A stretch of DNA of 63,504 nucleotides, the filler included, from Fonticula-like sp. SCN 57-25 (taxonomy: Eukaryota), in assembly GCA_001724245.1 (NCBI GenBank). It is 11 parts of 11 records of this genome, joined end to end, with 100 filler letters (N's around TTAATTAATTAA, not from the genome) between each part and the next. Parts side by side here need not be neighbours in the genome. Positions count along the whole stretch, not along the records: positions 49,813 to 55,071 come from MEDX01000603.1; 10 more parts are not named here. One strand, given 5' to 3'. Positions 1,901 through 61,722 of this stretch are shown here, one piece after another. The number at the start of each line of letters is the position of its first letter. Positions within the stretch are counted from its first letter, which is position 1. The position numbers were made by a program, and so were the translations under genes. The notes beneath the pieces are model-generated. The model did no database searches and was not told the origin of the DNA. It saw only the letters and a list, made by a program, of their open reading frames with translations.

Positions 1901-4710
1901 TTACTGCGCCGACCCCGATGGCGGCGCCGATTCGCCCCCAGTCGCCTTGCCATCTTCTTCATTCCTATTGCGCTTGCTATCGGTCTAAAGATAGGACAAG
2001 AAAATACACAGTCAGCATATAGCCATAATATAGAACTAACGATGACGTACATTGGAAGCAGGTTCGTCTTCGCGAGACCGCTTGGCGTCGTCCCGGCGAT
2101 CACGTGATCCACGGCGGTCGCGCGACCAATCGGGCGGCGGCGCGTCATCGTGCGGACGACCGCCACGGTCATAAGGTCGGTCACGAGGTCCATCATACCC
2201 ACGTGGTCCATCACGAGGTCCATCATACCCACGTGGTCCATCACGTGGCCCATCATACCCACGCGGTCCATCACGTGGTCCATCATACGGTCCACGTGGT
2301 CCATCGTAGGGTCCCCTTGGCCCGTCATACCTGTCGCGCGGCCCGTCATAAGGCCCACGCGGTCCGTCATAGGGCCCACGTGGCGGCCCACTATAAGGCC
2401 CCCTCGGCCCATCATACGGCCCACGTGGCGGCCCATCGTACGGTCCACGTGGCCCATCATAAGGCCTCCTGGCCCCATCATACGGCCCACGTGGCGCATC
2501 ATACGGGCTCCCCCGCCCATCATACCCACCTCGGTCATACCCACGTGGCGCATCATACCCACGTGGCCCCTCATACGGCCCACGCGCCCCATCATACACG
2601 CCGCGCCCCTCCCGCGGCCGCTCCCTCTCTCCATAAGGTCCACGTGGCGGCTCATACCGCTGCGGCGGCCCAGCCAATGGCGACCCGCGGCTGTCCCGAT
2701 ACCGATCTCCCATTGGCGGACGGCCGCCATCAGGCCCGCGATACGGCGGCATGATTGGCGGAGGCCGTCCGCGCCCGCCGCTGCTCCCGCCACTTGGCCC
2801 GTGGATGGCGAGGTGGGGCGGCGGGCGGGGGCCGGTCATGGGCGAGCTGTGCGTCGAAGACCCTTTCGTGTGGTAATTGGGGCGAATACTGTAAAGGGGA
2901 AAGGAGAAAGAGGGTAAGAACATGACCATGAACGGCAACATGAACATGCACATGAACATGACCATGAAGATGAACATGAACATGAACATGGACATGAATA
3001 TGAGCATGCACAAGAACAGGAACAAGAACAAGAAGACCAATACCAACCAACCAACCAATAATAAAAACGTACTCGGCAGGTTTACAGGGAAGCGGCGCCT
3101 CAAAGAACCACTGATGATGCAGGACATCCATCGCCATCGGCCGCTTTGCCGGGTCCAGCGTCAACCTACACAGCCCACATCAGTACCCAATACAGTACTT
3201 TATACCCAGCCACGCACAGCTGGTCAAGAAGGTCACATCCACTCGAGCTCAGATGCTCACTAAACCGCGACCGCAATACACGGCGGTGCACAAGCGGGTC
3301 AAACTTTGCCTTGTCATAGTCGGGCAACTTTGACACACCTACCAAACACATATGCCTTGTCAGCACAACATTTCCATCAATACCAAACGAATAAATGACT
3401 CGTACCTGGCCATGTTTCCTCTGTCGGCATTCCCACAATCTGCGTGACCGTATTCAGCTGCCTTATCTGCCCGACATCATCGTCTTCAAAAGTGGTCATG
3501 AAGAGCGGATGACGCAGGTAAAACTCGGTAAAGATGCACCCGGCGGCCCAAATGTCGAGCGAGGCGTTGTATTGGTTGCCGCCGAGGAGAAGTTCGGGGC
3601 CGCGGTACCACATGGTGCACACTTTTTTGGTCATCTGGAACATGCCGTCGTCGAGGCTAGACTTGTCGGGAAGGATCCGCGAAAGGCCAAAGTCGGCGAT
3701 TTTGAGTTCGCCACGTGTGTTCACAAGGATATTTGCGCCTATTTCGTGTCAGAAAATGACTATAATTTGCACGTAAATTTGCACAAAAATGACGTACTTT
3801 TCAAGTCACGGTGGACAATGTCGTTTTTGACAAGAGAAGCGAGGCCCATGAAAAGCTGCTTGACGTACGACTTGATATGGTGCTCGGGAAAGACATTGCT
3901 CTTGTTGGCGAGCAGCGAGCCCAAGTCATAGTCCATGTATTCAAGCACAAGTGCAACAATATTGTCGGCTAAAACAAGGTAAAAGTTAGAAAAAGGGCGC
4001 ACGTGGACAAGTCGTACCTTGACCAAAGGCCATGTCGCGCAGCTGCACGATGCCGGGCGAGCCGCGCAGCCGCTTCAAGATCTTGATCTCGCGAATGGCG
4101 GTAATGGGGAACTTTTACGTGCAAGTTGAATATAAAATTGTTTCTTTCGTTAATATAAAAACGCACCCCGTTGGTCTCCTCGGCGAGCGAGTACTTTTTG
4201 AGCGCCACAACGTCCGTCGTGTCCTTGTACGTCGCGCGGACGACCGAGCTGCGCCACGCGGTGAGCCCGCGCGCACAAAAAAAGCATAGTAAAAACGTAC
4301 CCATAAGTGCCCGCGCCGACGCGCTCTTTCTGGTCAAAATTTTGCAGCTCGCGAAGGCCCGTCATCTTGCGCCGCAGATGCGGGGGGCGCATGTCGGCCG
4401 GCGTCGTCACAATCGGCGACTTTCCGCTGCTGCGCAAAAAATCGGCCGTCGGGCGCGGCAGAGGTGACGAGGCGGACCCGTTTTTGGACGGCGGCGCTCC
4501 GGGCGTGCTCACGTCAGGTACGACCACAGGCGCCTTGTCTGCCAATCCCACCACCGGCGGGGCAGTCGGACCGACGGCGACCTTGATGTCCACCGTCGAT
4601 GCCGACGGCGCTTCTTCCGGCGGCGGCGGCGGTGGTGGTGGCGGCGGAGGCGGAGTCTGCTCCGTCTGGGGAAGCTCGCCTTCCTCCCTCTCCTCGTCTT
4701 CTGGCCGCAT
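1901..4710 (-). CDS. CDK9/12/13-family (Bur1/Ctk1-like) CTD kinase with a C-terminal GPYDGPR repeat tail; multi-exon
   Basis: Spliced motifs VGAGTYG, VALKK, FPITAIREIKIL, HRDLK, ANIL, KIADFGL, VCTMWYRGPELLLG, DIWAAGC. ATG at 4710 and TAA at 1901-1903 after a last short intron. Confidence 0.88.
2180..2650 (-). repeat. Coding tandem repeat with a ~21-nt period (G[P]YDGPR units) in the kinase tail
   Basis: Repeated catcatac(c/g)...ccacgtgg units on the + strand. Confidence 0.9.
2920..3062. repeat. Intronic microsatellites (CATGAA)n, (CAAGAA)n, (CCAA)n
   Basis: They lie inside the kinase intron at ~2889-3071 (GTACGT...TACAG on the minus strand). Confidence 0.85.
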
Positions 4711-5784: not shown

Positions 5785-5884
5785 NNNNNNNNNNNNNNNN
5801 NNNNNNNNNNNNNNNNNNNNNNNNNNNNTTAATTAATTAANNNNNNNNNNNNNNNNNNNNNNNNNNNNNNNNNNNNNNNNNNNN
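5785..5884. other. Artificial contig linker. Identical linkers at 12072-12171, 17468-17567, 22857-22956, 28247-28346, 33621-33720, 38991-39090, 44352-44451, 49713-49812 and 55072-55171
   Basis: 44 N + TTAATTAATTAA (stops in all six frames) + 44 N, present ten times. Genes are cut at these points. Confidence 0.99.
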
Positions 5885-12071: not shown

Positions 12072-12171
12072 NNNNNNNNNNNNNNNNNNNNNNNNNNNNN
12101 NNNNNNNNNNNNNNNTTAATTAATTAANNNNNNNNNNNNNNNNNNNNNNNNNNNNNNNNNNNNNNNNNNNN

Positions 12172-17467: not shown

Positions 17468-17567
17468 NNNNNNNNNNNNNNNNNNNNNNNNNNNNNNNNN
17501 NNNNNNNNNNNTTAATTAATTAANNNNNNNNNNNNNNNNNNNNNNNNNNNNNNNNNNNNNNNNNNNN

Positions 17568-22856: not shown

Positions 22857-22992
22857 NNNNNNNNNNNNNNNNNNNNNNNNNNNNNNNNNNNNNNNNNNNN
22901 TTAATTAATTAANNNNNNNNNNNNNNNNNNNNNNNNNNNNNNNNNNNNNNNNNNNNCTCGCAGGCCAGCCGCCGCGGGATCCAGGATCATCA

Positions 22993-28211: not shown

Positions 28212-28346
28212 CGAATCAAATCGTCGTCGCGATGCCGTCGACGATTNNNNNNNNNNNNNNNNNNNNNNNNNNNNNNNNNNNNNNNNNNNNTTAATTAATT
28301 AANNNNNNNNNNNNNNNNNNNNNNNNNNNNNNNNNNNNNNNNNNNN

Positions 28347-33620: not shown

Positions 33621-33721
33621 NNNNNNNNNNNNNNNNNNNNNNNNNNNNNNNNNNNNNNNNNNNNTTAATTAATTAANNNNNNNNNNNNNNNNNNNNNNNN
33701 NNNNNNNNNNNNNNNNNNNNT

Positions 33722-35711: not shown

Positions 35712-36720
35712 ATGTCTCGCCGCACCCTTTACGTGAGCGGGTTTGGACCCGAAATTCGCCAGGACGATCTCCGCTATGAGTTTTCTCGGTACGTTTATTA
35801 GGGAGCGCCTTTCTGTCGACCGACCGCACTTCTCGATAGGGCGGGCCTCGGCATCTCTCGTTTGTCGCGACATCATCGACTGACGCGCTGTTGCTTGGTA
35901 TGTTTATTTTTATCTTTTACCTACGTCGTTCTTCGTCGTTTTCTTGCTTCTTCTTTGGAATGAATATTTAATATTTATCTGCTTTGCTGCGTCTTTTTGT
36001 TCCTGTTCAGCTACGGCCGCCTGGAACGCTGCGACCTTCTCTACTCGAAGCGGGTAGCATTCATCGAGTTTGACGATGAGCGCGATGCCGAGGACGCCAA
36101 GTACGACATGGACGACCGCCGGCTCGGCGGCTCCTACATTGTGGTAGAGTGGGCCAAGCATCGGCCCAGCTCATCATGGAGATACGGCGGACGGTACGCG
36201 ATCTTTTTTTGCGCGGGAAACTTGCGCGGGAAAGTATGACTAACATGATGCCGCCAGGGATTCGAGGGATGATCGCTACTACGACCGCGATTACGACCGC
36301 AGGGATCGCCGCTACGACGACCGCGACTATGACCGCTACGACGACCGCGACTATGACCGTCGGGATGACCGCGACTATGACCGTCGGGATGACCGCGATT
36401 ACGACCGTCGGGATGACCGCGACTATGACCGTGACGACCGCCGGGATCGCCGCGATGACGACCGCCGCGATGACGACCGCCGCGATGACGACCGCCGCGA
36501 TGACGACAAGGATCGCCGGGACGATGACCGGGATCGTCGCGACGATGACCGCCGTGATGACCACAAGAAAGATGACGGTGACCGCCGCAGTGACGATGAC
36601 CGCAAGAACGATGACGGCGATCGCAAGAATGATGACGGCCGTGATGAAGGCCGTGATGATGCCAAGCCTCAAGATGACGCACATCAGGCCGAATCAGCGC
36701 CGACATCCGCCTCGGCCTGA
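35712..36720 (+). CDS. srp1: SR-family splicing factor (S. pombe Srp1-like RRM) with an RD/RDY-rich tail
   Basis: MSRRTLYVSGF...LRYEFSR|YGRLERCDL...AFIEFDDERDAEDA...IVVEWAK. Introns 35789-36010 and 36194-36257. Confidence 0.85.
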
Positions 36721-36927
36721 TCACATTCACTTTGCATTCACTTTTTCTTTTCATTCCCCTTTTCCCTTTAATAAACATGCAATACTAAATCGTTTCCCTC
36801 CATTCATATTTACAATGAGCGATAGAGAAATCAACTTGCGCCGAGCGCAAACAAGGGCGGCGCGTCTAGAGGAACCAACAAATCAAATAATTGCGGCCGC
36901 AGAGAATAAAAGAAAAGAGAAAGGGTA

Positions 36928-37948
36928 TTAAAAGAGCATCTCTGGCGTGCTGTCCTCGTAGCGCGTGCACTGGTCGGGGACGCACGTCGAATTGAAGTAG
37001 GAGCAGGTAGACCGGCGGAAGTCAAGGTAGTTGTCAGCCTCGACCGAGCACGTGCTGTAGCAGCGGCTGGTGACGGTTTCGCTGCCAGTGTAGAACAACA
37101 TATTCGGGCTGAAAAGATGCGTCAGAAAATGGCATAAAAAGAAGAAAAATGGCATGCAATAACACAAATTGACACGTGAATCGCCACAAAAACCATAAAA
37201 GTAACAATTAATTGACGATAAATAACAATGCTCTTGCCAGAAAGCGGCATGACCAATAGACATGTTCATTGTCCCCAATGATCCCTGCATCCATGATCCC
37301 CGACGCGCACCATTCGCTGTAGGGATCGACGGCCCAAAAGTAGACGTTGCCGACGATAATGAGGAGGATCAGGACGGCGCTCAGACCGCCGATCATTCCC
37401 TTGAACTTGGGATCAAGGTCGCCAGCGCGGTACCACTTCCACTATAGTCGGATGACATTAGCCATCGCACCGCAAAAGAGGGGCAAAACCGCATTAAAAG
37501 AGATATAAAACAACAAGAAAAAAGAAAAATTTAAACAAAGCAACAGTTAGATATGAAAACGCACCAAGATAAAGATGCAGGCCGCGAGGGCTGCGACGGT
37601 GGCACCGAGCACAATGTGCATCGGGTTCTTGCTGATGCCATTGACGATCGAAAAGACGAGCGTCAACTGATGGACGGACAGTGGGTAAGACACAAGTAAA
37701 AGGAGAAGCAAAGGGGGGCACGCACGAGGGCGCCGAGCATCAACAGGCCGCCGAGAAAGTACTGGACAAACTTCTCCTATAGGCCAGGGGTGAGCAAAAC
37801 ATCGGGGGGGAAAGGAAGGAGGAAAGCGGCGAAAAGCGCAGAGGTTACAGGCAAGTAGACAAGGAAAGAAAGAGGGAAATAGAGAGGGAATTGGGTAGGG
37901 AAAAAGTACCTTTCCGGTCTCCTCGCCAAAGAGCGGTGTCGAATCCAT
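36928..37948 (-). CDS. TMEM243: TMEM243 (DUF2678)-like membrane protein with a Cys-rich C-terminal extension; 5 exons
   Basis: MDSTPLFGEE, hydrophobic helices, KWYRAGDLDPKFK, GNVYF. Confidence 0.8.
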
Positions 37949-38990: not shown

Positions 38991-39847
38991 NNNNNNNNNN
39001 NNNNNNNNNNNNNNNNNNNNNNNNNNNNNNNNNNTTAATTAATTAANNNNNNNNNNNNNNNNNNNNNNNNNNNNNNNNNNNNNNNNNNNNCTTTCCTTGT
39101 GAATCTCGGTTGAAGCGTACTCAATCGACAAGAGAGGAATGAAAAAAGAGTGCCGCCAGCACTGCCTTTATATATTGCATCTTACGCACATGTTTCGAAG
39201 CGATTCGAATGTTCGCGCACAATCGGTATCGCACATTCGGCGCCCCTGGAACCTTCTCGAACAAAACCTGCCGGCAGCACTGCTGCAGCACTGTGCACAA
39301 CCCGACCATGCCGGCGGATTGTGCACAGCTTGTTGTCGCCGAGGACGATCGAGTTGCACTCGTAAACTTCTTCATTAGGAAGGGGAGCCTAGAAATGGAA
39401 ACGCGGGGCAAGGGGAATGTGAGAAAACCAATGTATGGGCATACCAGTGAACATATCCATAATTATGATGAACGTACGGGTACCTTGAACAAAATCTCCG
39501 ACAGATTTGGTCGACCATCGTCCCGATATGGTCTTAATCTAATTAAATGGTTGCGCCCTCGCCGCTGATTGGACGGTAAAAATGACCAGGGAATGCGATG
39601 TCACTGTTTCAAGTTACCCGCGCAATGTTGCACCGAAGTCTGACCTTGGCGCCACGTTTTTGCCCCCTAGGGAGCCGTTCTTTAGACGTTCGCTCGCCTC
39701 CTTGTTCAGACCTGTTTCTCCGACCCCTTCCGAGCGGCTTCAGTGGCCGTTGCTGCGTTCGCCGCCGCCTTCACTTCGGTTCTTTTGTTTATCTCTTCCT
39801 TTCGACGCGCCTTTCGAGCGTGTTTGCGAGCAATCATCAGCATCTTT

Positions 39848-44351: not shown

Positions 44352-44451
44352 NNNNNNNNNNNNNNNNNNNNNNNNNNNNNNNNNNNNNNNNNNNNTTAAT
44401 TAATTAANNNNNNNNNNNNNNNNNNNNNNNNNNNNNNNNNNNNNNNNNNNN

Positions 44452-49712: not shown

Positions 49713-49887
49713 NNNNNNNNNNNNNNNNNNNNNNNNNNNNNNNNNNNNNNNNNNNNTTAATTAATTAANNNNNNNNNNNNNNNNNNNNNNNNNNNNNNNN
49801 NNNNNNNNNNNNTACTACTGCTTCTTGTCTATTGAGTCTACGCCCGATGGCACCTGATAAAAACAAACACATCTCTTTCGTCCCCTC

Positions 49888-51560: not shown

Positions 51561-51626
51561 TGATTGGCCAACGAGTGACAACACACGCGATTGATTGGCC
51601 AATTAAAAGGCTTCTGTGATTGGTTG
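51561..51626. promoter_or_regulatory. Three ATTGG (CCAAT) boxes about 30 bp apart in the PHO8/RNH1 divergent promoter
   Basis: TGATTGG at ~51561, 51592 and 51617. Confidence 0.55.
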
Positions 51627-51703
51627 GCGCGCGGGACTTTGACTTCACGACCGTGGCGGCAGCGTCAATTCTGGGACGACGGGGCCGCGTCCCTGCTCGC
51701 GAT

Positions 51704-52535
51704 ATGCCGTTCTACGCAGTGCATGTGGGTCGCCAGACCGGTGTGTTTAACACTTGGGCTGAAGCGGAGCAGCAGGTCAAGGGCTTTGCCGGCGCACAGT
51801 TTAAAAAGTTTGATTCTGTGGGCGACGCCGAGTTCTTTGCGGACCGCGGAAGGCAAGCTGCGTCAGCGTACGTTGACCGCCTTTTGCCTGAACTGCTTCC
51901 GCTTGACCGACACTAACGCGGCTGTGCAACGTAGCAGCGCGGCTTCGCCGTACAGCCGCGACCGTGCCAGCGAGCAGCGCGGGAGCAGCTACCAGTACAG
52001 CTCGTTGGATACCCTCGTCGTGCGTCGGCCTGCCGCGTCATCATCGAGTGCGTCTGCGTCAGTGGGAGCAAAGTCTCTTTCCGACCCCGGGCGCACAGTT
52101 GTGTACTGCGACGGGAGCGCAATGGGAAATGGCCGCTCGGGCGCCCGTGCGGGTATTGGAGTGTATTTTGGCACGAATGATGCGCGGAATGTGAGTGAGC
52201 CGCTGGGTGCCGGCGCGCAAACGAACCAGCGGGCCGAGCTGGCGGCGGCTGCGCGCGCGCTCAAGGCATCCAACCCTAAGGAGCCGATCGAAATTCGCAC
52301 CGATAGCACGTACACGATAAAGTGCGCCACCGAATGGCTGCCAAAGTGGCAGCGGAACGGGTTCAAGACGAGCGGCAACACCGACGTCAAGAACCGGGAC
52401 CTCGTCGAGGAGCTCGGTGCCCTCGCAAAGGGGCGCGACATCGTGTGGACCCACGTGAGGGGGCACCAGGGCGAGGAAGGGAATGAGTTTGCGGACAGGC
52501 TGGCCGTCGCGGGGGCCCAACAGAGCAAGAACTAG
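51704..52535 (+). CDS. RNH1: Ribonuclease H1 (hybrid-binding domain + RNase H domain)
   Basis: FYAVHVGRQTGVFNTW, VYCDGS, TNQRAEL, IRTDS, WQRNG, HVRGHQGEEGNEFAD. Intron 51868-51934. Confidence 0.95.
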
Positions 52536-52740: not shown

Positions 52741-55071
52741 TTAAGAGATGTAGTTTGACGGGAAGAGCCCGCTCGCCCCCGTCCTAAGGTTCTTGCCCAT
52801 GATCCACCCGTCGGGGCGCAGCGTGTCCACCGAAACGGCGTCGCCAACCGCCAGCTCGATCTCGTCCTCGTGCGTCGGCATAAACGAATAGAGCGCCTTC
52901 TTCGTCTTGGACGGCGGCGTCGGGAGCGGCGGCCGCGGCGGGGCAGTCCTTGCCGCCGTGTACGCCGCAGGCATCACAGGCACCGCGGATGGCTTGGGAG
53001 CCGGAACAGGCGCGCCTGTCGGCCTGGGCGCGGCAACCGGCGCGGCCGGCGGCTTGGCTACAGGGGCGGCCGGCGACTTGGCCACCGGGGCGGGTCTGGC
53101 GCCAAGGACGGACGCGGAAGATCCCGACGTCGTGACGAGCGGCGACAACGACGCCTGCGACGTCATTGGGGCGGCGCTGGATTTGGCGGGCGCAGTGCGT
53201 CCGCTGCGAGGGTCAAGAGAGGACCAGCCACTCTTGCGCACGCGCAGGGCCACAAAGACAGCAATGGCGATGAGCACGAGGAACATGATTGAGAGGCCGA
53301 CAGCGAGCCCGATGATATTGGACGAGCCCCCGACCGTTCCGGTGATAGTATACTGCGCGGCGGCATCGCCGACGGCAACGACCGACACGTACACATACCC
53401 GACCGTGTTGGTAATCTCGAGCGTCGTCTCCTCGCCCGCCGAGGCGGCCGCCGTAATGTCAGAGAAGAGCGAGAGCTCGGCGGTGCCGTTGGTGCGCGCG
53501 ATGAGCTGCGCGGCGCCGGCCTGCACGGCCAGCGTGACGCGAAGAACCATGTCGGCTGTGAGAGGCACTGACGATGCTGTGTAGCGGACGGGCTGACCGT
53601 CGGCCGGCGCCGTGCCCGACAGGGTCACGTCGGCGACGACGGCAGGGCCTATCGCGCAGCCGGAGCCGCTGTAGCCGGGGTAGCACGTGCACATGTCGCT
53701 GCAGCAGACGCCCGCGGCGGTGCCCTGGAGCGTCACGGAGCAGTCGCTGGGGCACGACGACACGCGGCAGGAGCCGAGGACGCACGAGAGGCCGCACGAG
53801 TCGCCAGAGGCGACGCAGTCCGAGGCAGTCAAGCACGGCGAGCCGGGGGGGCTCGTCGACGACGGCGGGGCGGGATCCAGGCTGAACGAGTACGCGACCG
53901 CCGTCGACGCCGACGTCGTGAACCCAGAAAGGAAGCCGCGCGCCGTAACAGTCACCGTCACTGTAGACAGGTAAAAAGGGGAAAGATGATGATTAGAGCA
54001 ATGGATAAACCAAAAAGTGCGCACCTTCAGTCGTGCGCGAAACGGTAAACGGCTCAGTGTAGAGCGTCGAGTTGGCGCTCGGCGTCGTGCCGTCGAGAGT
54101 GTAGCGAATCTGCACGTCGGCCATGACATTTGACATTTTCACGACGACACTGCCACCGACGCCGAACGAGCCCGACGCCGGGGTGACGATCGGAGCGGTC
54201 ACCTGCGGCACGGTGGTCATGTCCACGCACTCGCCCTGGATGCACCACTTGTCCGTGCCGCACATGGTTCCTTCGAGCTTGGGGAAAGACGACCCGCGGC
54301 ATCCCGATGTGCCTGACCGGCAGTACTGCTGGCAAATCACCGACTGGAGCGGGCAGCTGGCTGTGCCTGCCTGAATCTGGCACTGGTCGTCCGCAGAGTA
54401 GCACAGGCCGGGGTACGTGTCGCACGGCGACGGCAGCGTCGGGTAGGCCGATGGAACGTTGTTCAGGCACGAAGATGAGGGGCTCGCGAGGGTGGGGTTG
54501 ATATAGGCAACCGTGCAGGTCGACCAGGTCAGGGGCGTCAGCTGCGCCCCGGAATAGGCGGCCATGATAAAGTCGGACGCGTCGCACGAGTTGTCGGTGG
54601 AATCATGTCTAAAAATAGCATCGCGTTAAAAGCGAACAAAAAATATGCGTTGCTTTGATGGTGGCACGTACGATGCACCAAAATTGTGTCCGATTTCGTG
54701 CGCGATGGTGGCGGCGGTGGTAAAGCCCGTGTCCTGGTTGATGTTGGCCGAGTAGAAAGAGTCGCACGTGGTATCGACCCACGCAAGGCCAATAGTACCT
54801 CCGTCCATGTCGACGCGCGAGATGAGCACGGCGTTGTCGTGCGCGTACGTCGTCTTGACCCCGCGCTGCCACGACGAAAAGCTCTGCAGCGTCGTCGACG
54901 GGTTCGTGGCCACGGTGAACGGGTTCGTGGCGGCCGTTACCGTCACCATTGCCTTGAGAACAATATGAATGCGCTTGCTAAAGGTCTCTTCCGACCGATA
55001 CAGATACATGTTGTTCACCATGCTCATGAGGAGGAAAGAGTACGACTGCACGGCATCCACCTGCGAGGCGC
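52741..55071 (-). CDS. M12B (ADAMTS-like) metalloprotease + ADAMTS Cys-rich domain + Fn3-associated domain + EGF + TM + Pro-rich region + SH3; 5' truncated
   Basis: HEIGHNFGAS|HD zinc motif, Met-turn FIMAA, YSADDQC...EGTMCGTDKWCIQGECV, IRYTLDGTTP, EGF CTCYPGYSGSGC, TM IIGLAVGLSIMFLVLIAIAVFVAL, SH3 ALYSF...DGW...GLFPSNYI. Introns 54609-54671 and 53961-54024. Confidence 0.88.
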
Positions 55072-55171
55072 NNNNNNNNNNNNNNNNNNNNNNNNNNNNN
55101 NNNNNNNNNNNNNNNTTAATTAATTAANNNNNNNNNNNNNNNNNNNNNNNNNNNNNNNNNNNNNNNNNNNN

Positions 55172-55600
55172 GCTGGCAAGGATGCCGAGGCGCTGCGCAT
55201 TCTTGCCTACATTATTGTGCGCGACAACCACGACCGGTCCGCCGCGCCGCTTCGGTCGCTGCTTATGACCGCATCGACCATCTACCTTGTTGATGAGGAT
55301 TATGCGCGCTGGCCGACGCCGTGCTTTGCGTCGACGTACGACTACAAGAGGCGGCCGCCGTACCGCGTCGTTGCAGAGCGGCCCATCTCGGCCGTTTTGG
55401 CGGTTGAGACGCCCGCCAACGCGTCAAGTGAGATTTCACTCGTGTTTGAGGACCCGCATGATGGAAAGCAGCTTGACTTTCAGACGGCGTCGTGGGACTT
55501 GATGTGCGCGCTGCCCATGCTGCGTGACAGGTTTGCAAGGCAGCTCGGGACAATTTGGAACGAAATGTTTTCATCAGAGCTGCGCATTATATCTGCCTAA
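55172..55600 (+). CDS. C-terminus of a Nischarin/STK11IP-like protein
   Basis: SLLMTASTIYLVDEDYARWPTPCFA...ISLVFED...LGTIWNEMFSSEL resembles the Nischarin C-terminal domain. Confidence 0.65.
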   Translation, partial: AGKDAEALRILAYIIVRDNHDRSAAPLRSLLMTASTIYLVDEDYARWPTPCFASTYDYKRRPPYRVVAERPISAVLAVETPANASSEISLVFEDPHDGKQLDFQTASWDLMCALPMLRDRFARQLGTIWNEMFSSELRIISA

Positions 55601-57956: not shown

Positions 57957-58253
57957 GGTGATGTCGCGGTTCTGCTGTTCTGATCAGTCAACAACCACGC
58001 CACCGTTTTTATTTTAAGAATGTCGTCACGTGACCTGCGAGATTGATGACCATGAAAAAGTTGATGGTGGTCGGGATGGTTCACTTTTCGCGGAATGTTG
58101 AAGAACGCCCTGCAGCCTATCATGGTTAGCCCCTAGATCCATTTTAGGGCAGATTCCCATATTTGGGTTGCATTTCCCAAATTTGGATTGATTGGCATCC
58201 AATGTTCCTTTCGCTCCCAAAGGTTCCGTTGCTACTCCCNTGCGCTGATCAGG

Positions 58254-59921
58254 ATGGGCAAGTACCTTGTGGTGGTGGCGCTTGCCGCTTTGGCCCTTTC
58301 GGCCTCTGCTCAGTGTACGGCAGACGCCCTTGCGACGCGCGAGCGCTTGGCTTACCTTTGACGCTGCGTTGTTAGATTGCATTTCGGGAGCGAAACCGGC
58401 TGGTGTCATGGTGGGGGAAAACTGCGTTTGCGATATCGGCCGCTTCCAGGTAGGCGAGGAGACTGCAAACTGCGACGGCGTCGTGCAGTGTGGTGTGCCT
58501 GTTTCTATGGAACCTCTCTCGATTGGCCAGGTTGTTTCCGACTCGAACCTTGTCCTTGAAGGCAGCAACCTGAGCTTCAACGCCACTTTTGATTTTGCCG
58601 AGCAGCGCCGCGTCGTTGACCTTTACTTTGGCAACCCCGTCTGCGGCCGCAACAACGGCGAACCTAATGGTGTGGTGAACCTTTGGCAGACGCAGTGCAA
58701 GGATAACTACCAGATCCAGCGTGACATTTTTGAGCTTGTTGATTGCGACTTCATTCCTGTCATAGAGGACAATACCATGTATCTCCTCGGCGAGATTCAT
58801 GCCTCTGTTGAGGAGCGCCTTCCGTTCTTTGGCGAAACGACTTTTGCGCGCACCGTTTCTACGATGATTCCCGTTTCCGTTGCCTTGGTGTTGAGCGTCA
58901 ACGTCGTCTCTGACCCGATTTCCGTCGTGCCCCAGATGGACATCCAGGCTCTTGTTTCGTCGGTCGAATCCAGTAGTGGCCTTGTAACTTTTTCTTTGAA
59001 GACTGCTTCTGCCAATGGCTACACGTTTGCGCCCAACGTTGCCTCCTTGCAGGACGCTGTGCGCCACTCTTTGTGTCTCTTCCTGCCACTCACGCTGGTC
59101 GCTCGATAGGTCCCTGCTGCGTCGGAGGCCACCATCGCCTCAGCTGGTGCCACCGCTTGCGTGGAATCTCCTTGTCTGCAGACCTTTACGTTCACTGTGA
59201 CTTTGAACGATGAGTGCTCCATTGACGGTAATTGGGTGATTCCCTTCATCGTCGAGTGCATCGACGAAAACTGTGACCCGTTCCATACGACCATCGCGGT
59301 TGAATTCGATATCGGTACCCTTTGCGCGCAGGTCAGCGTGGGAGGCAACCTTGGGGCCACTATGGACCTTTTGTACGATACCGTTTCCGTTAGCCAGGTC
59401 GAGAGCGGTCTCACCCTCGCGGGTGCCATCACCCTCGATTCTACCCTGGAGCTCTCTGGCGCAACCATTGTCGAACTGACGGTTACTGACAACAATGCCC
59501 CGGGCGAGCCGGAGGTGAAGACGCTTATTGAAGGCGACGAGATTTTGGTACGGGCGAGCGCTTCTTGCTATCAGCGTTAGTAACGTGCCGCGTTCGGTAG
59601 CTCCCGTCCAATTTCGCCCACGGCATCTTTGCGAACGACGTTTTGACTTTTACCCTTATGGTCGACCGCGGCACTGAATCTGGCCTGTTCGTCCGTGCAA
59701 ACGGCGACACTCTTGACGTCACTGTCCGCGCTGTCGTCGAGATTGAGTACGCTGGCGGCTTCCGCCGTCGTCGCACCCTCAGCGGCGGCAAGATGCCGGT
59801 GGCCAGGTCCCTCGAGATTCTCTCCTCCGGTACCGATGACGACTCCGCCGCCAGCACCCTCTTTGCGTCCAGCGTTGCTCTCGTCGCGTCCGCCGCTGCT
59901 GGCTTTGTCGCCTTCTTTTAA
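58254..59921 (+). CDS. Secreted beta-rich, Cys-containing protein with an RRRR site and a GPI/hydrophobic tail (paralog 1)
   Basis: Signal peptide MGKYLVVVALAALALSASAQ. Introns 58315-58375, 59059-59109 and 59548-59600. Ends FRRRRTLSGGKMPVARSLEIL...SSVALVASAAAGFVAFF*. Confidence 0.8.
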
Positions 59922-60210
59922 TTTGCTTTCCACTGTAGGCTGTTGTTCCATTTGATTGAGTTTTATATTAACGCCGTCGGCATCTGTCGGCCAGGCATGA
60001 CAAGTAGTTGCAATAGAATTATTAGGAAATATAATACCATTACATGCCACCAACTGAGATATAAAGCGACTGGCGAGCGGTCAAAGAATGCTCACAAACG
60101 GCCCCGAAACATGTATTGATGAAAGAATTCGATGCGATCCACAGCGACCAATGGCAGTGCTTGGATCCATCCATAATAGTCCAACCGGCGCGCCTACGGC
60201 GACGACAGGG

Positions 60211-61722
60211 ATGGCGGCCCGGACACCGGCCGTGGTGCTCGCCCTAGCGTGCTGCATCGCGCTTGCGGTAGCACAAATATCCGAAAACAATTATTATAAT
60301 AGCCTCGGTCGGTTTGGTACGGCATCTGATGCAATCCCGCCTGGGCCGGTGCTAATCCTTGTTTCAGCTTGCCATGACGTTCAAGGCAACGAGCGGGGGA
60401 TCGCGTCGGACGGGGGCGCCACCTGTAGTTGTGACGTTGGGTTCTATAGCAGCGACCCCATGAATCCCACTTACGACTGCACTTTTGGGGCGTGCGCGTC
60501 GCCCGCCACCCTTGCCTTCTCGCAGGCGGATCCCTCCGGAGTGATCTTTTCGGCTTTTGCTGTCCAGAACAACGACAATGTGCAGTTCAGCTTTACGGCG
60601 GGAGTCGCCTCGGGGCGCCGTGTCATAAATGTCCGTCTGAACGATATGAGTGCGTCGCAAATAACGCGCACATCGGGTGGCTGCATGGATTACTACACTG
60701 TGCGCTTTTTCAACGTCGGGGAGAACTGGGGAACGCCGACCGCCGCCAACACGGTCGTTGTCTACATAGTGATCCACCTCGAGGAAAGACTTCCCGCGCT
60801 CGGCGGTCACCACCCTGTCCGCGAAGTTAGGTGGAAAAAGCCCTACGAAGTGTTCCCCTACGTTGGGAAAGCGGCATCGCCGTCATCGCTCAAGGTCGTC
60901 AGCCCCGTCGTGCTCGAGGCCGCGATCTCCCACGGCCATGCGACCCCTAGCGAGGTGCGCGTCACGGTCGCCGCCATGCTCGACCCTCCCTACTATCTCG
61001 CCCCCACATCCAACCCCGTCGCAAAAGTACGTTTCCCGATCCCTGTCGCGCCCCCCGTGCTCATCCCGGACTAGTACCCAGAGTATCTTGCCCCCTACGT
61101 TACCTTTTCCATCGAGCCCAAGAACGTCACCTGCGAGGCCGAGACTTGCCCCCAGTACTTTGAGCTGGTCATCGATCTCGGAGAATTTGCCGGCACCATT
61201 GACGGGCAGTATGAGCTGCTCTTTGACGCTCTCTGCGATGGCCCGAACTGCTTCGCCGGCGGCGCGGTTCCGATCGTCCCCTTTGAACTGAACCTCGGCT
61301 TCCTTCCAGAGCTCATTGCGCCCGAGCACGAATACACTATCGATCTGCGGCCCGACAAGCCGAGCGCCACGTACCGCGCGGACGAATCAGTCGTCTTTTC
61401 CGTTGTTGTCAACGGCCTCAGCGACATGGCCCCCCAGTTGCAAATCGATGGCGTCTTTGTCTTGCTCGGCGAATCAATGACGGACATCGAGCACATGGTG
61501 ACCATCGTGCCGGCCGAGCCGTACAACATTACTTTGCCGCTGATCGAGCTCGAGGCGGAGCTTCCTGCAATCTTGGGGAGGCCGTTTTATTTGAGGGTCG
61601 ACTTTAGCCTCCCGATGGTGGCCGCGAGGCGGCGCGACGTCCCGGTCAAGGTCAAGCGGTCGGCCACGAGAGAGATCCACTTTGAAGGCGCGAGCAACGA
61701 CGATCATCGGCTATGCATCTGA
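60211..61722 (+). CDS. Secreted paralog 2 of the same family, without the hydrophobic tail
   Basis: Signal peptide MAARTPAVVLALACCIALAVA. Shares CxCD[IV]G, RRV, CxDxY, EERLP, C-x3-C-xQxF, IDGx[WY] and RRR with paralog 1. Intron 61027-61074. Confidence 0.78.

Follow-up and report, generated by a model that had tools for sequence, protein, structure and literature searches.

A predicted membrane-tethered ADAMTS-like protease with an SH3 domain of its own in the Holomycota-like eukaryote Fonticula-like sp. SCN 57-25

Introduction

How does a protease of ADAMTS type come to occur in a eukaryote that does not appear to be an animal, and what would such an enzyme do when it is tethered to the membrane and carries an SH3 domain in its own cytoplasmic tail? 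These questions are raised by a gene of Fonticula-like sp. SCN 57-25 (assembly GCA_001724245.1), which lies on the minus strand at positions 52741-55069 of the window, i.e. the whole 63,504-nucleotide (nt) stretch of joined contigs that was analysed. The gene has three exons and two short GT..AG introns and encodes a product of 733 residues that is partial at its N-terminus. Our preferred joint reading, which we hold to be moderately probable, is that one gene of a non-animal, Holomycota-like eukaryote encodes a tethered ADAMTS-type protease with its own SH3 domain, and that cell-surface proteolysis is placed via the tail of this protein.

The ADAMTS family is described as 'conserved throughout the metazoa' and is counted as belonging to the extracellular-matrix toolkit of animals (PMC3002383). 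The single non-animal mention that we found is a mark for an 'ADAMTS'-annotated expressed sequence tag, entered under Capsaspora in a table on unicellular holozoans from 2008 (PMC2346548). No paper describing a transmembrane- or SH3-bearing ADAMTS-like protease, or a holomycotan ADAMTS-type protein, was found in a literature search that covered few subscription journals and no supplements.

Domain architecture and family membership

The domains follow one another in the order M12B catalytic, ADAMTS-type disintegrin-like, CHB_HEX_C_1/Fn3_assoc, EGF-like Cys-rich, jelly-roll, transmembrane helix, PxxP tail and SH3 (Table 1). A first-pass annotation of this DNA had claimed a domain order that is borne out by Pfam on the three exon translations and by a script run on the spliced protein, and all the motifs that it quoted are present in the minus-strand sequence at 52741-55071. 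Joined by script, the exons give 2202 nt with 733 codons and one stop, which is terminal. The N-terminus is lost because the protease contig (49813-55071, 5.26 kb) terminates at 55071; the part cut off comprises the signal peptide, the prodomain and ~20 positions at the start of the catalytic profile, and a tblastn search of the window with 10 homologues recovered no other M12B fragment.

Exon 1 matches the Pfam Reprolysin profile (2.2e-16) over positions 21-144 of 200, and the final 50 positions of the same profile are found at the start of exon 2. As in the ADAMTS enzymes, a Reprolysin-type catalytic domain carries an HExxHxxGxxHD zinc motif and a Met-turn, the latter as FIMAA at amino acids (aa) 146-150. 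The H, E, G, H, H and D of the zinc motif and the M of the Met-turn are invariant in all 42 aligned ADAMTS-type sequences and identical in the query, a pattern on which the domain is probably active as a zinc protease. When compared with the PDB, exon 1 retrieves snake-venom metalloproteinases, ADAM8 and ADAMTS-5 at 1e-13 to 1e-11, and in an exhaustive database search it is, taken alone, equally similar to animal ADAMTSs, ADAMs and bacterial reprolysin-like proteins. It is the domain behind the catalytic domain that decides the M12B type.

That domain stands directly behind the catalytic domain, as it does in ADAMTSs, and it is of ADAMTS type: in addition to the ADAMTS_CR_2 match in Pfam (Table 1), a local ADAMTS_CR_2 hidden Markov model (HMM) scores 2.3e-15 on the query, all eight distinct sequences that exon 2 retrieves from the PDB belong to ADAMTS-1, -13, -5 or -4 (1.2e-11 to 7e-7), and all eight conserved cysteines are kept, plus two extra, in the alignment with the 42 ADAMTS-type proteins. 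No match to Disintegrin (PF00200) or the ADAM Cys-rich domain was returned by Pfam at E ≤ 1, and a local disintegrin HMM found nothing at E ≤ 10. The Cys-rich domain had indeed been called ADAMTS-type rather than disintegrin from the start. The broader claim of an ADAMTS layout holds for the catalytic/disintegrin-like pair and fails beyond it: no exon has a TSP_1-type Pfam match at E ≤ 1, a local TSP1 HMM built from search matches found nothing at E ≤ 10, and ADAMTS_CR_3 (the Cys-rich domain) and the spacer are absent from the Pfam results on all three exons. The four catalytic cysteine columns in which the query departs from the same 42 proteins hold S, D/G and A, and hydropathy predicts a membrane anchor, whereas ADAMTSs are secreted without one. 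Because it has no TSP1 repeat, no ADAMTS_CR_3 or spacer and only four of the eight catalytic cysteines, and because it branches outside the canonical ADAMTSs sampled (see below), the protein is, as judged from its sequence, ADAMTS-like and not by definition an ADAMTS; by the defining features of those families it is a member of neither the ADAMs nor the ADAMTSs.

The ectodomain continues with a beta-sandwich for which exon 2 alone scores well above the Pfam cut-offs, both for CHB_HEX_C_1 (1e-12, 48.3 bits against 22; profile positions 2-49 of 67, where the exon end stops the match) and for Fn3_assoc (1.8e-10, 41.2 bits against 23). All 15 relatives of this domain recovered by a word-based search with exon 2 (1031 candidates) have bacterial-type architectures, several with Por_Secre_tail, and are at most 50% identical over the domain, which looks as if it had been captured from bacteria (54029-54178 in exon 2). 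A Ser/Thr/Pro stalk lies between CHB_HEX_C_1 and the EGF-like knot. The EGF domain proposed in the first-pass annotation is partly sustained, by the cysteine pattern and by an ESM Atlas lead to EGF_2/EGF_Teneurin (0.83); the sole Pfam match, EGF_Teneurin at E=1.2, is weak. With Pfam at E ≤ 10, nothing besides this match was found on the Cys-rich stretch, the jelly-roll or the tail, and the ESM Atlas holds no look-alike cluster for the ectodomain part of exon 3 (best 0.83) or for the full exon (best 0.76). The jelly-roll was recognised in a single-sequence AlphaFold model, where it forms a block with a predicted local distance difference test (pLDDT) of 60-87 at model residues 111-210 in a model with a mean of 57.6 and half of its residues below 50. 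Foldseek returned generic jelly-roll matches only, the best being 1pm4 (E 2e-5, template modelling score 0.61 on the target), and no specific family.

The transmembrane helix is the only strongly hydrophobic stretch of the protein by hydropathy prediction, and the two N-x-S/T sites both lie N-terminal to it; by hydropathy and by the charge of the RVRK behind the helix, the protein is predicted to be a type I membrane protein. The cytoplasmic tail comprises 167 residues. Its terminal SH3 domain retrieves 95 distinct SH3 sequences from the PDB at E ≤ 1e-3, the best being the SH3 of JIP1 (2.2e-11), with which ALYSF, GW and PSNY are conserved. The signature positions of SH3 domains are ALYxF, a Trp and SNY.

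Table 1. Features of the protease gene and its product in the window (aa, residue numbers of the spliced partial protein)
Feature	Position	Strand	Details
Exon 1 (partial)	54672-55069	-	M12B catalytic domain, N-terminal two thirds; ends within zinc motif (HEIGHNFGA-S)
Zinc-binding motif HEIGHNFGASHD (aa 124), divided by intron 1	54602-54700	-	Script on spliced protein
Intron 1	54609-54671	-	63 nt, GT..AG, phase 2; interrupts zinc-motif codon for Ser133
Exon 2	54025-54608	-	End of catalytic domain, ADAMTS-type disintegrin-like domain, most of CHB_HEX_C_1
ADAMTS-type disintegrin-like domain	54224-54412	-	Pfam ADAMTS_CR_2 1.4e-12, 48.3 bits against cut-off of 27.3
CHB_HEX_C_1/Fn3_assoc beta-sandwich, divided by intron 2	53869-54178	-	Pfam; 3' limit approximate
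Intron 2	53961-54024	-	64 nt, GT..AG, phase 1
Exon 3	52741-53960	-	Uninterrupted frame from end of CHB_HEX_C_1 to stop; TAA at 52741-52743
Cys-rich stretch, 12 Cys, aa 370-429	53656-53835	-	EGF-like C-x-C-YPGYSGSG-C at its end
Jelly-roll (beta-sandwich) domain between Cys-rich stretch and membrane	53326-53631	-	Single-sequence AlphaFold model and Foldseek
Single transmembrane helix, aa 543-566, followed by RVRK	53245-53316	-	Kyte-Doolittle mean up to 3.0 over 19 residues
Pro-rich tail region, five PxxP (aa 624-680), including RTAPPRPPLPTPPSK immediately ahead of SH3	52903-53100	-	Script
C-terminal SH3	52744-52899	-	Pfam SH3_9 2.9e-11, SH3_1 2.6e-8, both above cut-offs
Contig end and artificial linker	55072-55171	.	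44 N, TTAATTAATTAA, 44 N; DNA beyond is an unrelated contig

Relatives and phylogenetic position

An exhaustive HMMER search with exon 1 against 1.84 billion representatives (E ≤ 1e-3) gave 1202 matches, 33 of them at E ≤ 1e-10. Below 1e-30 there is only the window's own open reading frame (ORF), which recurs as record P0023, and the second-best match has 42% identity at E 3e-14. Word-based searches found no orthologue: exon 1 yielded seven animal proteins from 188 candidates, six of them ADAMTS6/7-like with 34-41% identity, and exon 2 the 15 bacterial CHB_HEX_C proteins described above. Among 172 fetched proteins, the best matches to the spliced protein (E 1e-47 to 1e-29) are those that span the catalytic and disintegrin-like domains, and the best 41 of them, scanned with Pfam, carry ADAMTS_CR_2 in 38 cases (37 above the cut-off), a TSP1-type domain in 35 and Disintegrin in two. 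At the thresholds used, none of the 85 Pfam-scanned relatives (41+39+5) carries SH3, CHB_HEX_C_1 or Fn3_assoc. No match among the 172 fetched proteins extends beyond aa 361, and those reaching past aa 330 are just the tails of bacterial CHB_HEX_C repeats. The full architecture was not seen in any relative found; exon 3 itself was not run against a sequence database, so relatives of the transmembrane-SH3 half may exist.

Phylogenetic trees were drawn from the best 150 of the 1202 exon 1 matches, 11 with fewer than 110 aligned residues being dropped, and the rows were labelled by their domains, not by taxa (51 ADAMTS, 31 ADAM, 16 bacterial-type, 47 unlabelled). A quick tree of 146 catalytic domains places the query, together with 49 of the 51 ADAMTS rows, in a set of 57 rows (98 in the Shimodaira-Hasegawa-like approximate likelihood ratio test, SH-aLRT), where it is sister to the other 56. 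A more careful tree of 57 rows comprised the query, 31 ADAMTS rows hand-picked for spread, and 16 ADAM and nine bacterial-type rows taken at random, with the unlabelled rows excluded. Here the query groups with 30 ADAMTS rows and one long-branched disintegrin-bearing row at 99/95, and the 30 ADAMTS rows form a clade without the query at 98/91. One row bearing a thrombospondin repeat (TSR; P0059) is placed outside the ADAMTS clade. Approximately unbiased (AU) tests argue against placing the query with the ADAM rows, be it all 16 (p 0.018) or the 13 core rows (p 0.022). The catalytic domain would therefore branch off on the stem leading to the ADAMTS clade and outside all 30 canonical members sampled. 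The first-pass annotation had suggested an M12B phylogeny with fungal ADAMs among its sequences; the trees made here would set the query apart from disintegrin-bearing ADAMs and on the ADAMTS side, albeit outside the canonical enzymes, and none of their rows could be labelled as a fungal ADAM (ADM-A or ADM-B).

Gene model and host lineage

ADAMTS proteins align to the spliced protein in a single stretch from aa 5 to ~265 that spans junction 1 (aa 133), and junction 2 (aa 328) lies within aa 259-361, the stretch matched by the bacterial CHB_HEX_C repeats of P0001 and P0003. From junction 2 to the stop there are 405 stop-free codons in a region of 69% GC, with the SH3 in frame with the end of the extracellular domain, and the GC content at third codon positions (GC3) of exons 1, 2 and 3 is 0.80, 0.83 and 0.84. 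Because homology spans both junctions and a single ORF runs from the end of CHB_HEX_C_1 to the SH3, the locus reads as one gene, in agreement with the first-pass interpretation. P0023, from another data set, is an independent occurrence of a near-identical ORF: it corresponds to window positions 54674-55051 with one substitution (T to S in GFTTAAT). It reads through intron 1 and therefore derives from genomic DNA; it stems either from another allele or strain or from related reads that were assembled a second time.

The lineage of the host can be gauged from a PHO8-like, N-terminally membrane-anchored alkaline phosphatase, which is encoded on the protease contig (49888-51495, minus strand; Pfam 1.3e-88) and has the same GC3 as the protease (0.83). 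Among the 120 matches listed, its best named relatives are from early-diverging fungi and Fonticula (44-54% identity), along with one plant-transcriptome record. A quick tree of 40 rows, made up of named ones picked from the listed matches, separates the 38 fungi by a branch (SH-aLRT 94) from the window protein and Fonticula. The intron lengths of 63-64 nt agree with a Holomycota-like, non-animal host. The organism thus appears to be Holomycota-like, without a close sequenced relative, and not an animal; the non-animal origin assumed at the outset is backed by the shared GC3 and by the relatives and tree position of the phosphatase. An identical phosphatase is encoded by a 12.7-kb contig of a second public data set, and the 5' end that the protease gene lacks here may lie on that contig.

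Comparison with known systems and proposed function

With the animal ADAMTSs (MEROPS M12B; ADAMTS-1, -4, -5, -13 and an echinoderm ADAMTS6-like protein) the query shares the zinc motif and Met-turn followed by a disintegrin-like domain with eight cysteines, 30-38% identity over both domains, and a catalytic domain on the ADAMTS side of the tree. It differs from them in the half set of catalytic cysteines and the position outside the canonical clade, and in everything that comes after the shared pair. Whereas the animal enzymes continue with a TSP1 repeat, a Cys-rich domain and a spacer, all lacking here, the query proceeds to CHB_HEX_C_1, the stalk, the EGF-like knot, the jelly-roll and the transmembrane helix, and ends in an SH3; it is membrane-anchored where the ADAMTSs are secreted, and its host is not an animal.

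The type I membrane plan, in which Cys-rich and EGF-like modules face outward and a PxxP tail lies in the cytoplasm, is that of the ADAMs; its transmembrane helix and five PxxP motifs are present in the query, and its EGF-like module is recognised by pattern and weak scores. ADAM sheddases use their PxxP tails to recruit SH3 adaptors, and by analogy the query probably works in the manner of ADAMs, as a tethered pericellular protease or sheddase. Unlike ADAMs, it has neither a classical Disintegrin nor an ADAM_CR domain, its grouping with disintegrin-bearing rows is disfavoured, and its tail carries an SH3 itself instead of only binding SH3 proteins. In the latter respect the closest likeness, by architecture only, is to yeast Fus1p, a type I membrane protein in whose cytosolic tail an SH3 close to the C-terminus is combined with a proline-rich region (PMC2063912); its ectodomain, unlike that of the query, is short and glycosylated and contains no enzyme. 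Sho1p, with four transmembrane helices, is a looser likeness. Bacterial reprolysin-like proteases (with PKD, BACON or Por_Secre_tail domains) are about as close to exon 1 as the animal enzymes are (E 1e-9 to 1e-12), and bacterial CHB_HEX_C_1 proteins have repeats up to 50% identical to the query domain. The bacterial proteases have no disintegrin-like domain and stand apart in the tree as a group of their own, and reprolysin together with CHB_HEX_C_1 was found in none of the 39 scanned.

These comparisons suggest a tethered pericellular protease that would cut proteins at or near the surface of its own cell. The non-catalytic ectodomains (CHB_HEX_C_1, EGF-like and jelly-roll) may pick the substrate or the surface, possibly a glycan-rich wall or matrix. 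Inside the cell, the SH3/PxxP tail may join the protease to an SH3 network of adaptors for polarity, actin or endocytosis: a proline-rich partner could be bound by the SH3, or the PxxP motifs of the tail by other SH3 proteins, and in this way the tail would control the location of the protease or its rate of uptake. This role is proposed by analogy with ADAM tails and Fus1p. As to the link between extracellular proteolysis and endocytosis or actin that was originally suggested, the SH3 and PxxP motifs it calls for are in place, while the SH3 is of a generic kind and the link itself is an inference.

Alternative explanations

Could a secreted protease and a separate transmembrane-SH3 protein have been taken as one, either as two adjacent genes or through mis-assembly? 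The assembly is fragmentary, with contigs of 5.3 kb, the gene model is drawn from genomic sequence, and the architecture is unseen elsewhere, SH3 and CHB_HEX_C_1 being absent from all 85 scanned relatives and matches past aa 361 from all 172 fetched proteins. However, intron 2 splits CHB_HEX_C_1 itself and homology runs on into exon 3, the frame stays free of stops for 405 codons up to the SH3 despite the high GC content, there is no space between the domains for a promoter or a second start, and GC3 is uniform across the exons; we consider such an artefact very unlikely. Contamination of the assembly with animal DNA might be suspected in that ADAMTS-like domains are typical of animals (PMC3002383). 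The contig, however, bears a fungal-type vacuolar alkaline phosphatase with a GC3 identical to that of the protease, the introns measure 63-64 nt, there is no TSP1 repeat and no animal match exceeds 45% identity, all of which makes contamination an extremely improbable source of the gene. The protein could also be mainly an adhesion or signalling receptor, in which the protease domain binds a ligand or is latent, as in the silent ADAM22, and the SH3 tail does the work. The large non-catalytic ectodomain and the signalling-type tail would fit this role, as would the absence of two of the four catalytic disulfides of ADAMTSs. Nevertheless, none of the zinc ligands is lost, nor are the catalytic Glu, the Met-turn or the Asp that follows the third His, whereas catalytically silent ADAMs such as ADAM22 have lost active-site residues, and we regard a pure receptor as quite unlikely.

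The origin of the module is a separate issue. One tentative scenario, which we think possible and somewhat doubtful, is that the query is a living representative of the pre-animal ADAMTS stem: the module would have been present in the opisthokont ancestor, membrane-tethered and connected to the cell cortex by its own SH3, and the secreted, TSR-bearing animal forms would have evolved afterwards, when the anchor was lost and TSRs were acquired. Alternatively, an animal catalytic plus disintegrin-like module was captured by horizontal transfer, ancient or recent, from a host, a prey or a neighbour, and then fused to bacterial-type and local domains, in which case the gene would be uninformative on the pre-animal origin of ADAMTS. 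Such a capture would account for the animal ADAMTS6/7-like proteins that make up six of the seven exon 1 word-search matches and for the ADAMTS type of 38 of the best 41 relatives scanned. No holomycotan relative was found by the exon 1 word search or by exhaustive HMMER, and the apparent bacterial import of CHB_HEX_C_1 (15 of 15 relatives) implies that domain capture does occur in this gene. On the other hand, the query is nested in no ADAMTS subfamily, lying outside the 30 canonical members and outside the 56 other rows of the larger tree, it lacks half of the conserved catalytic cysteines, and its native codon usage and intron type make a recent transfer unlikely; an ancient transfer from a stem animal is indistinguishable from vertical descent on present data. 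Overall, transfer strikes us as unlikely but by no means negligible.

Several points weigh against the joint reading of one gene for a tethered protease in a non-animal host. The exon 1 query found no orthologue among the 1.84 billion representatives, and there is hence no conservation of the architecture to compare. An assembly chimera within 2.3 kb is conceivable without an orthologue, but ORF continuity makes it unlikely; the splicing, like the gene model, is derived from genomic DNA, to which P0023 likewise belongs. The signal peptide, prodomain and activation site fall outside the contig, which leaves secretion and activity as predictions, and only four of the eight ADAMTS catalytic cysteines are kept (aa 102, 141, 164 and 180). 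The trees sample the best 150 of 1202 matches under domain labels only, with no row identifiable as a fungal ADAM, their root on the bacterial-type rows is assumed, and AU p-values of ~0.02 are only modest. Finally, the lineage was assigned from a single neighbouring gene by a short search.

Other features of the window

The window strings together contigs of ~5.26-6.2 kb that become broadly smaller along its length, each joined to the next by a linker of the composition given in Table 1 (5785-5884, 12072-12171, 17468-17567, 22857-22956, 28247-28346, 33621-33720, 38991-39090, 44352-44451, 49713-49812 and 55072-55171). The contigs are unlinked, and gene neighbourhood across a linker is therefore meaningless. 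On the protease contig, an RNase H1-type gene (51620-52535, plus strand; Pfam RNase_H 1.1e-38) is convergent with the protease and ends ~200 bp from its stop; an ORF upstream of it in another frame (MPFYAVHVGRQTGVF...) resembles the usual N-terminal hybrid-binding domain, and an intron is thus likely. The next contig begins with the C-terminus of a protein (55172-55600, plus strand) that matches the C-terminal PH domain of Nischarin and STK11-interacting protein (1.9e-10 and 1e-7), a family known mainly from animals. Further along the plus strand, the ORFs at 58249-59109 and 60058-61074 are distant paralogues (22% identity over 210 aa, E 4e-5) with no Pfam match, the second of which begins with a signal-peptide-like stretch. 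Elsewhere there are low-complexity long ORFs at 2036-3160 (minus strand) and 36080-36931 (plus strand), one with GPRGPYDGP-type and the other with MTATTTAT-type repeats.

Significance

The protein would represent a design unseen in ADAMs and ADAMTSs, in that the protease itself bears the SH3 which the tails of animal ADAMs must recruit, and it clearly illustrates how animal-type, bacterial-type and generic signalling modules can be shuffled into one protein. If a stem-type ADAMTS module does occur on the fungal branch of the opisthokonts, the origin of the module (or its transfer) would lie outside the animals. The evidence for this is one partial gene known solely from genomic DNA, and it would be informative on the origin of the ADAMTS module if both the stem position and vertical descent hold. 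In that event the gene would provide a concrete protein with which to ask what role such proteases may have played before there was an animal matrix.

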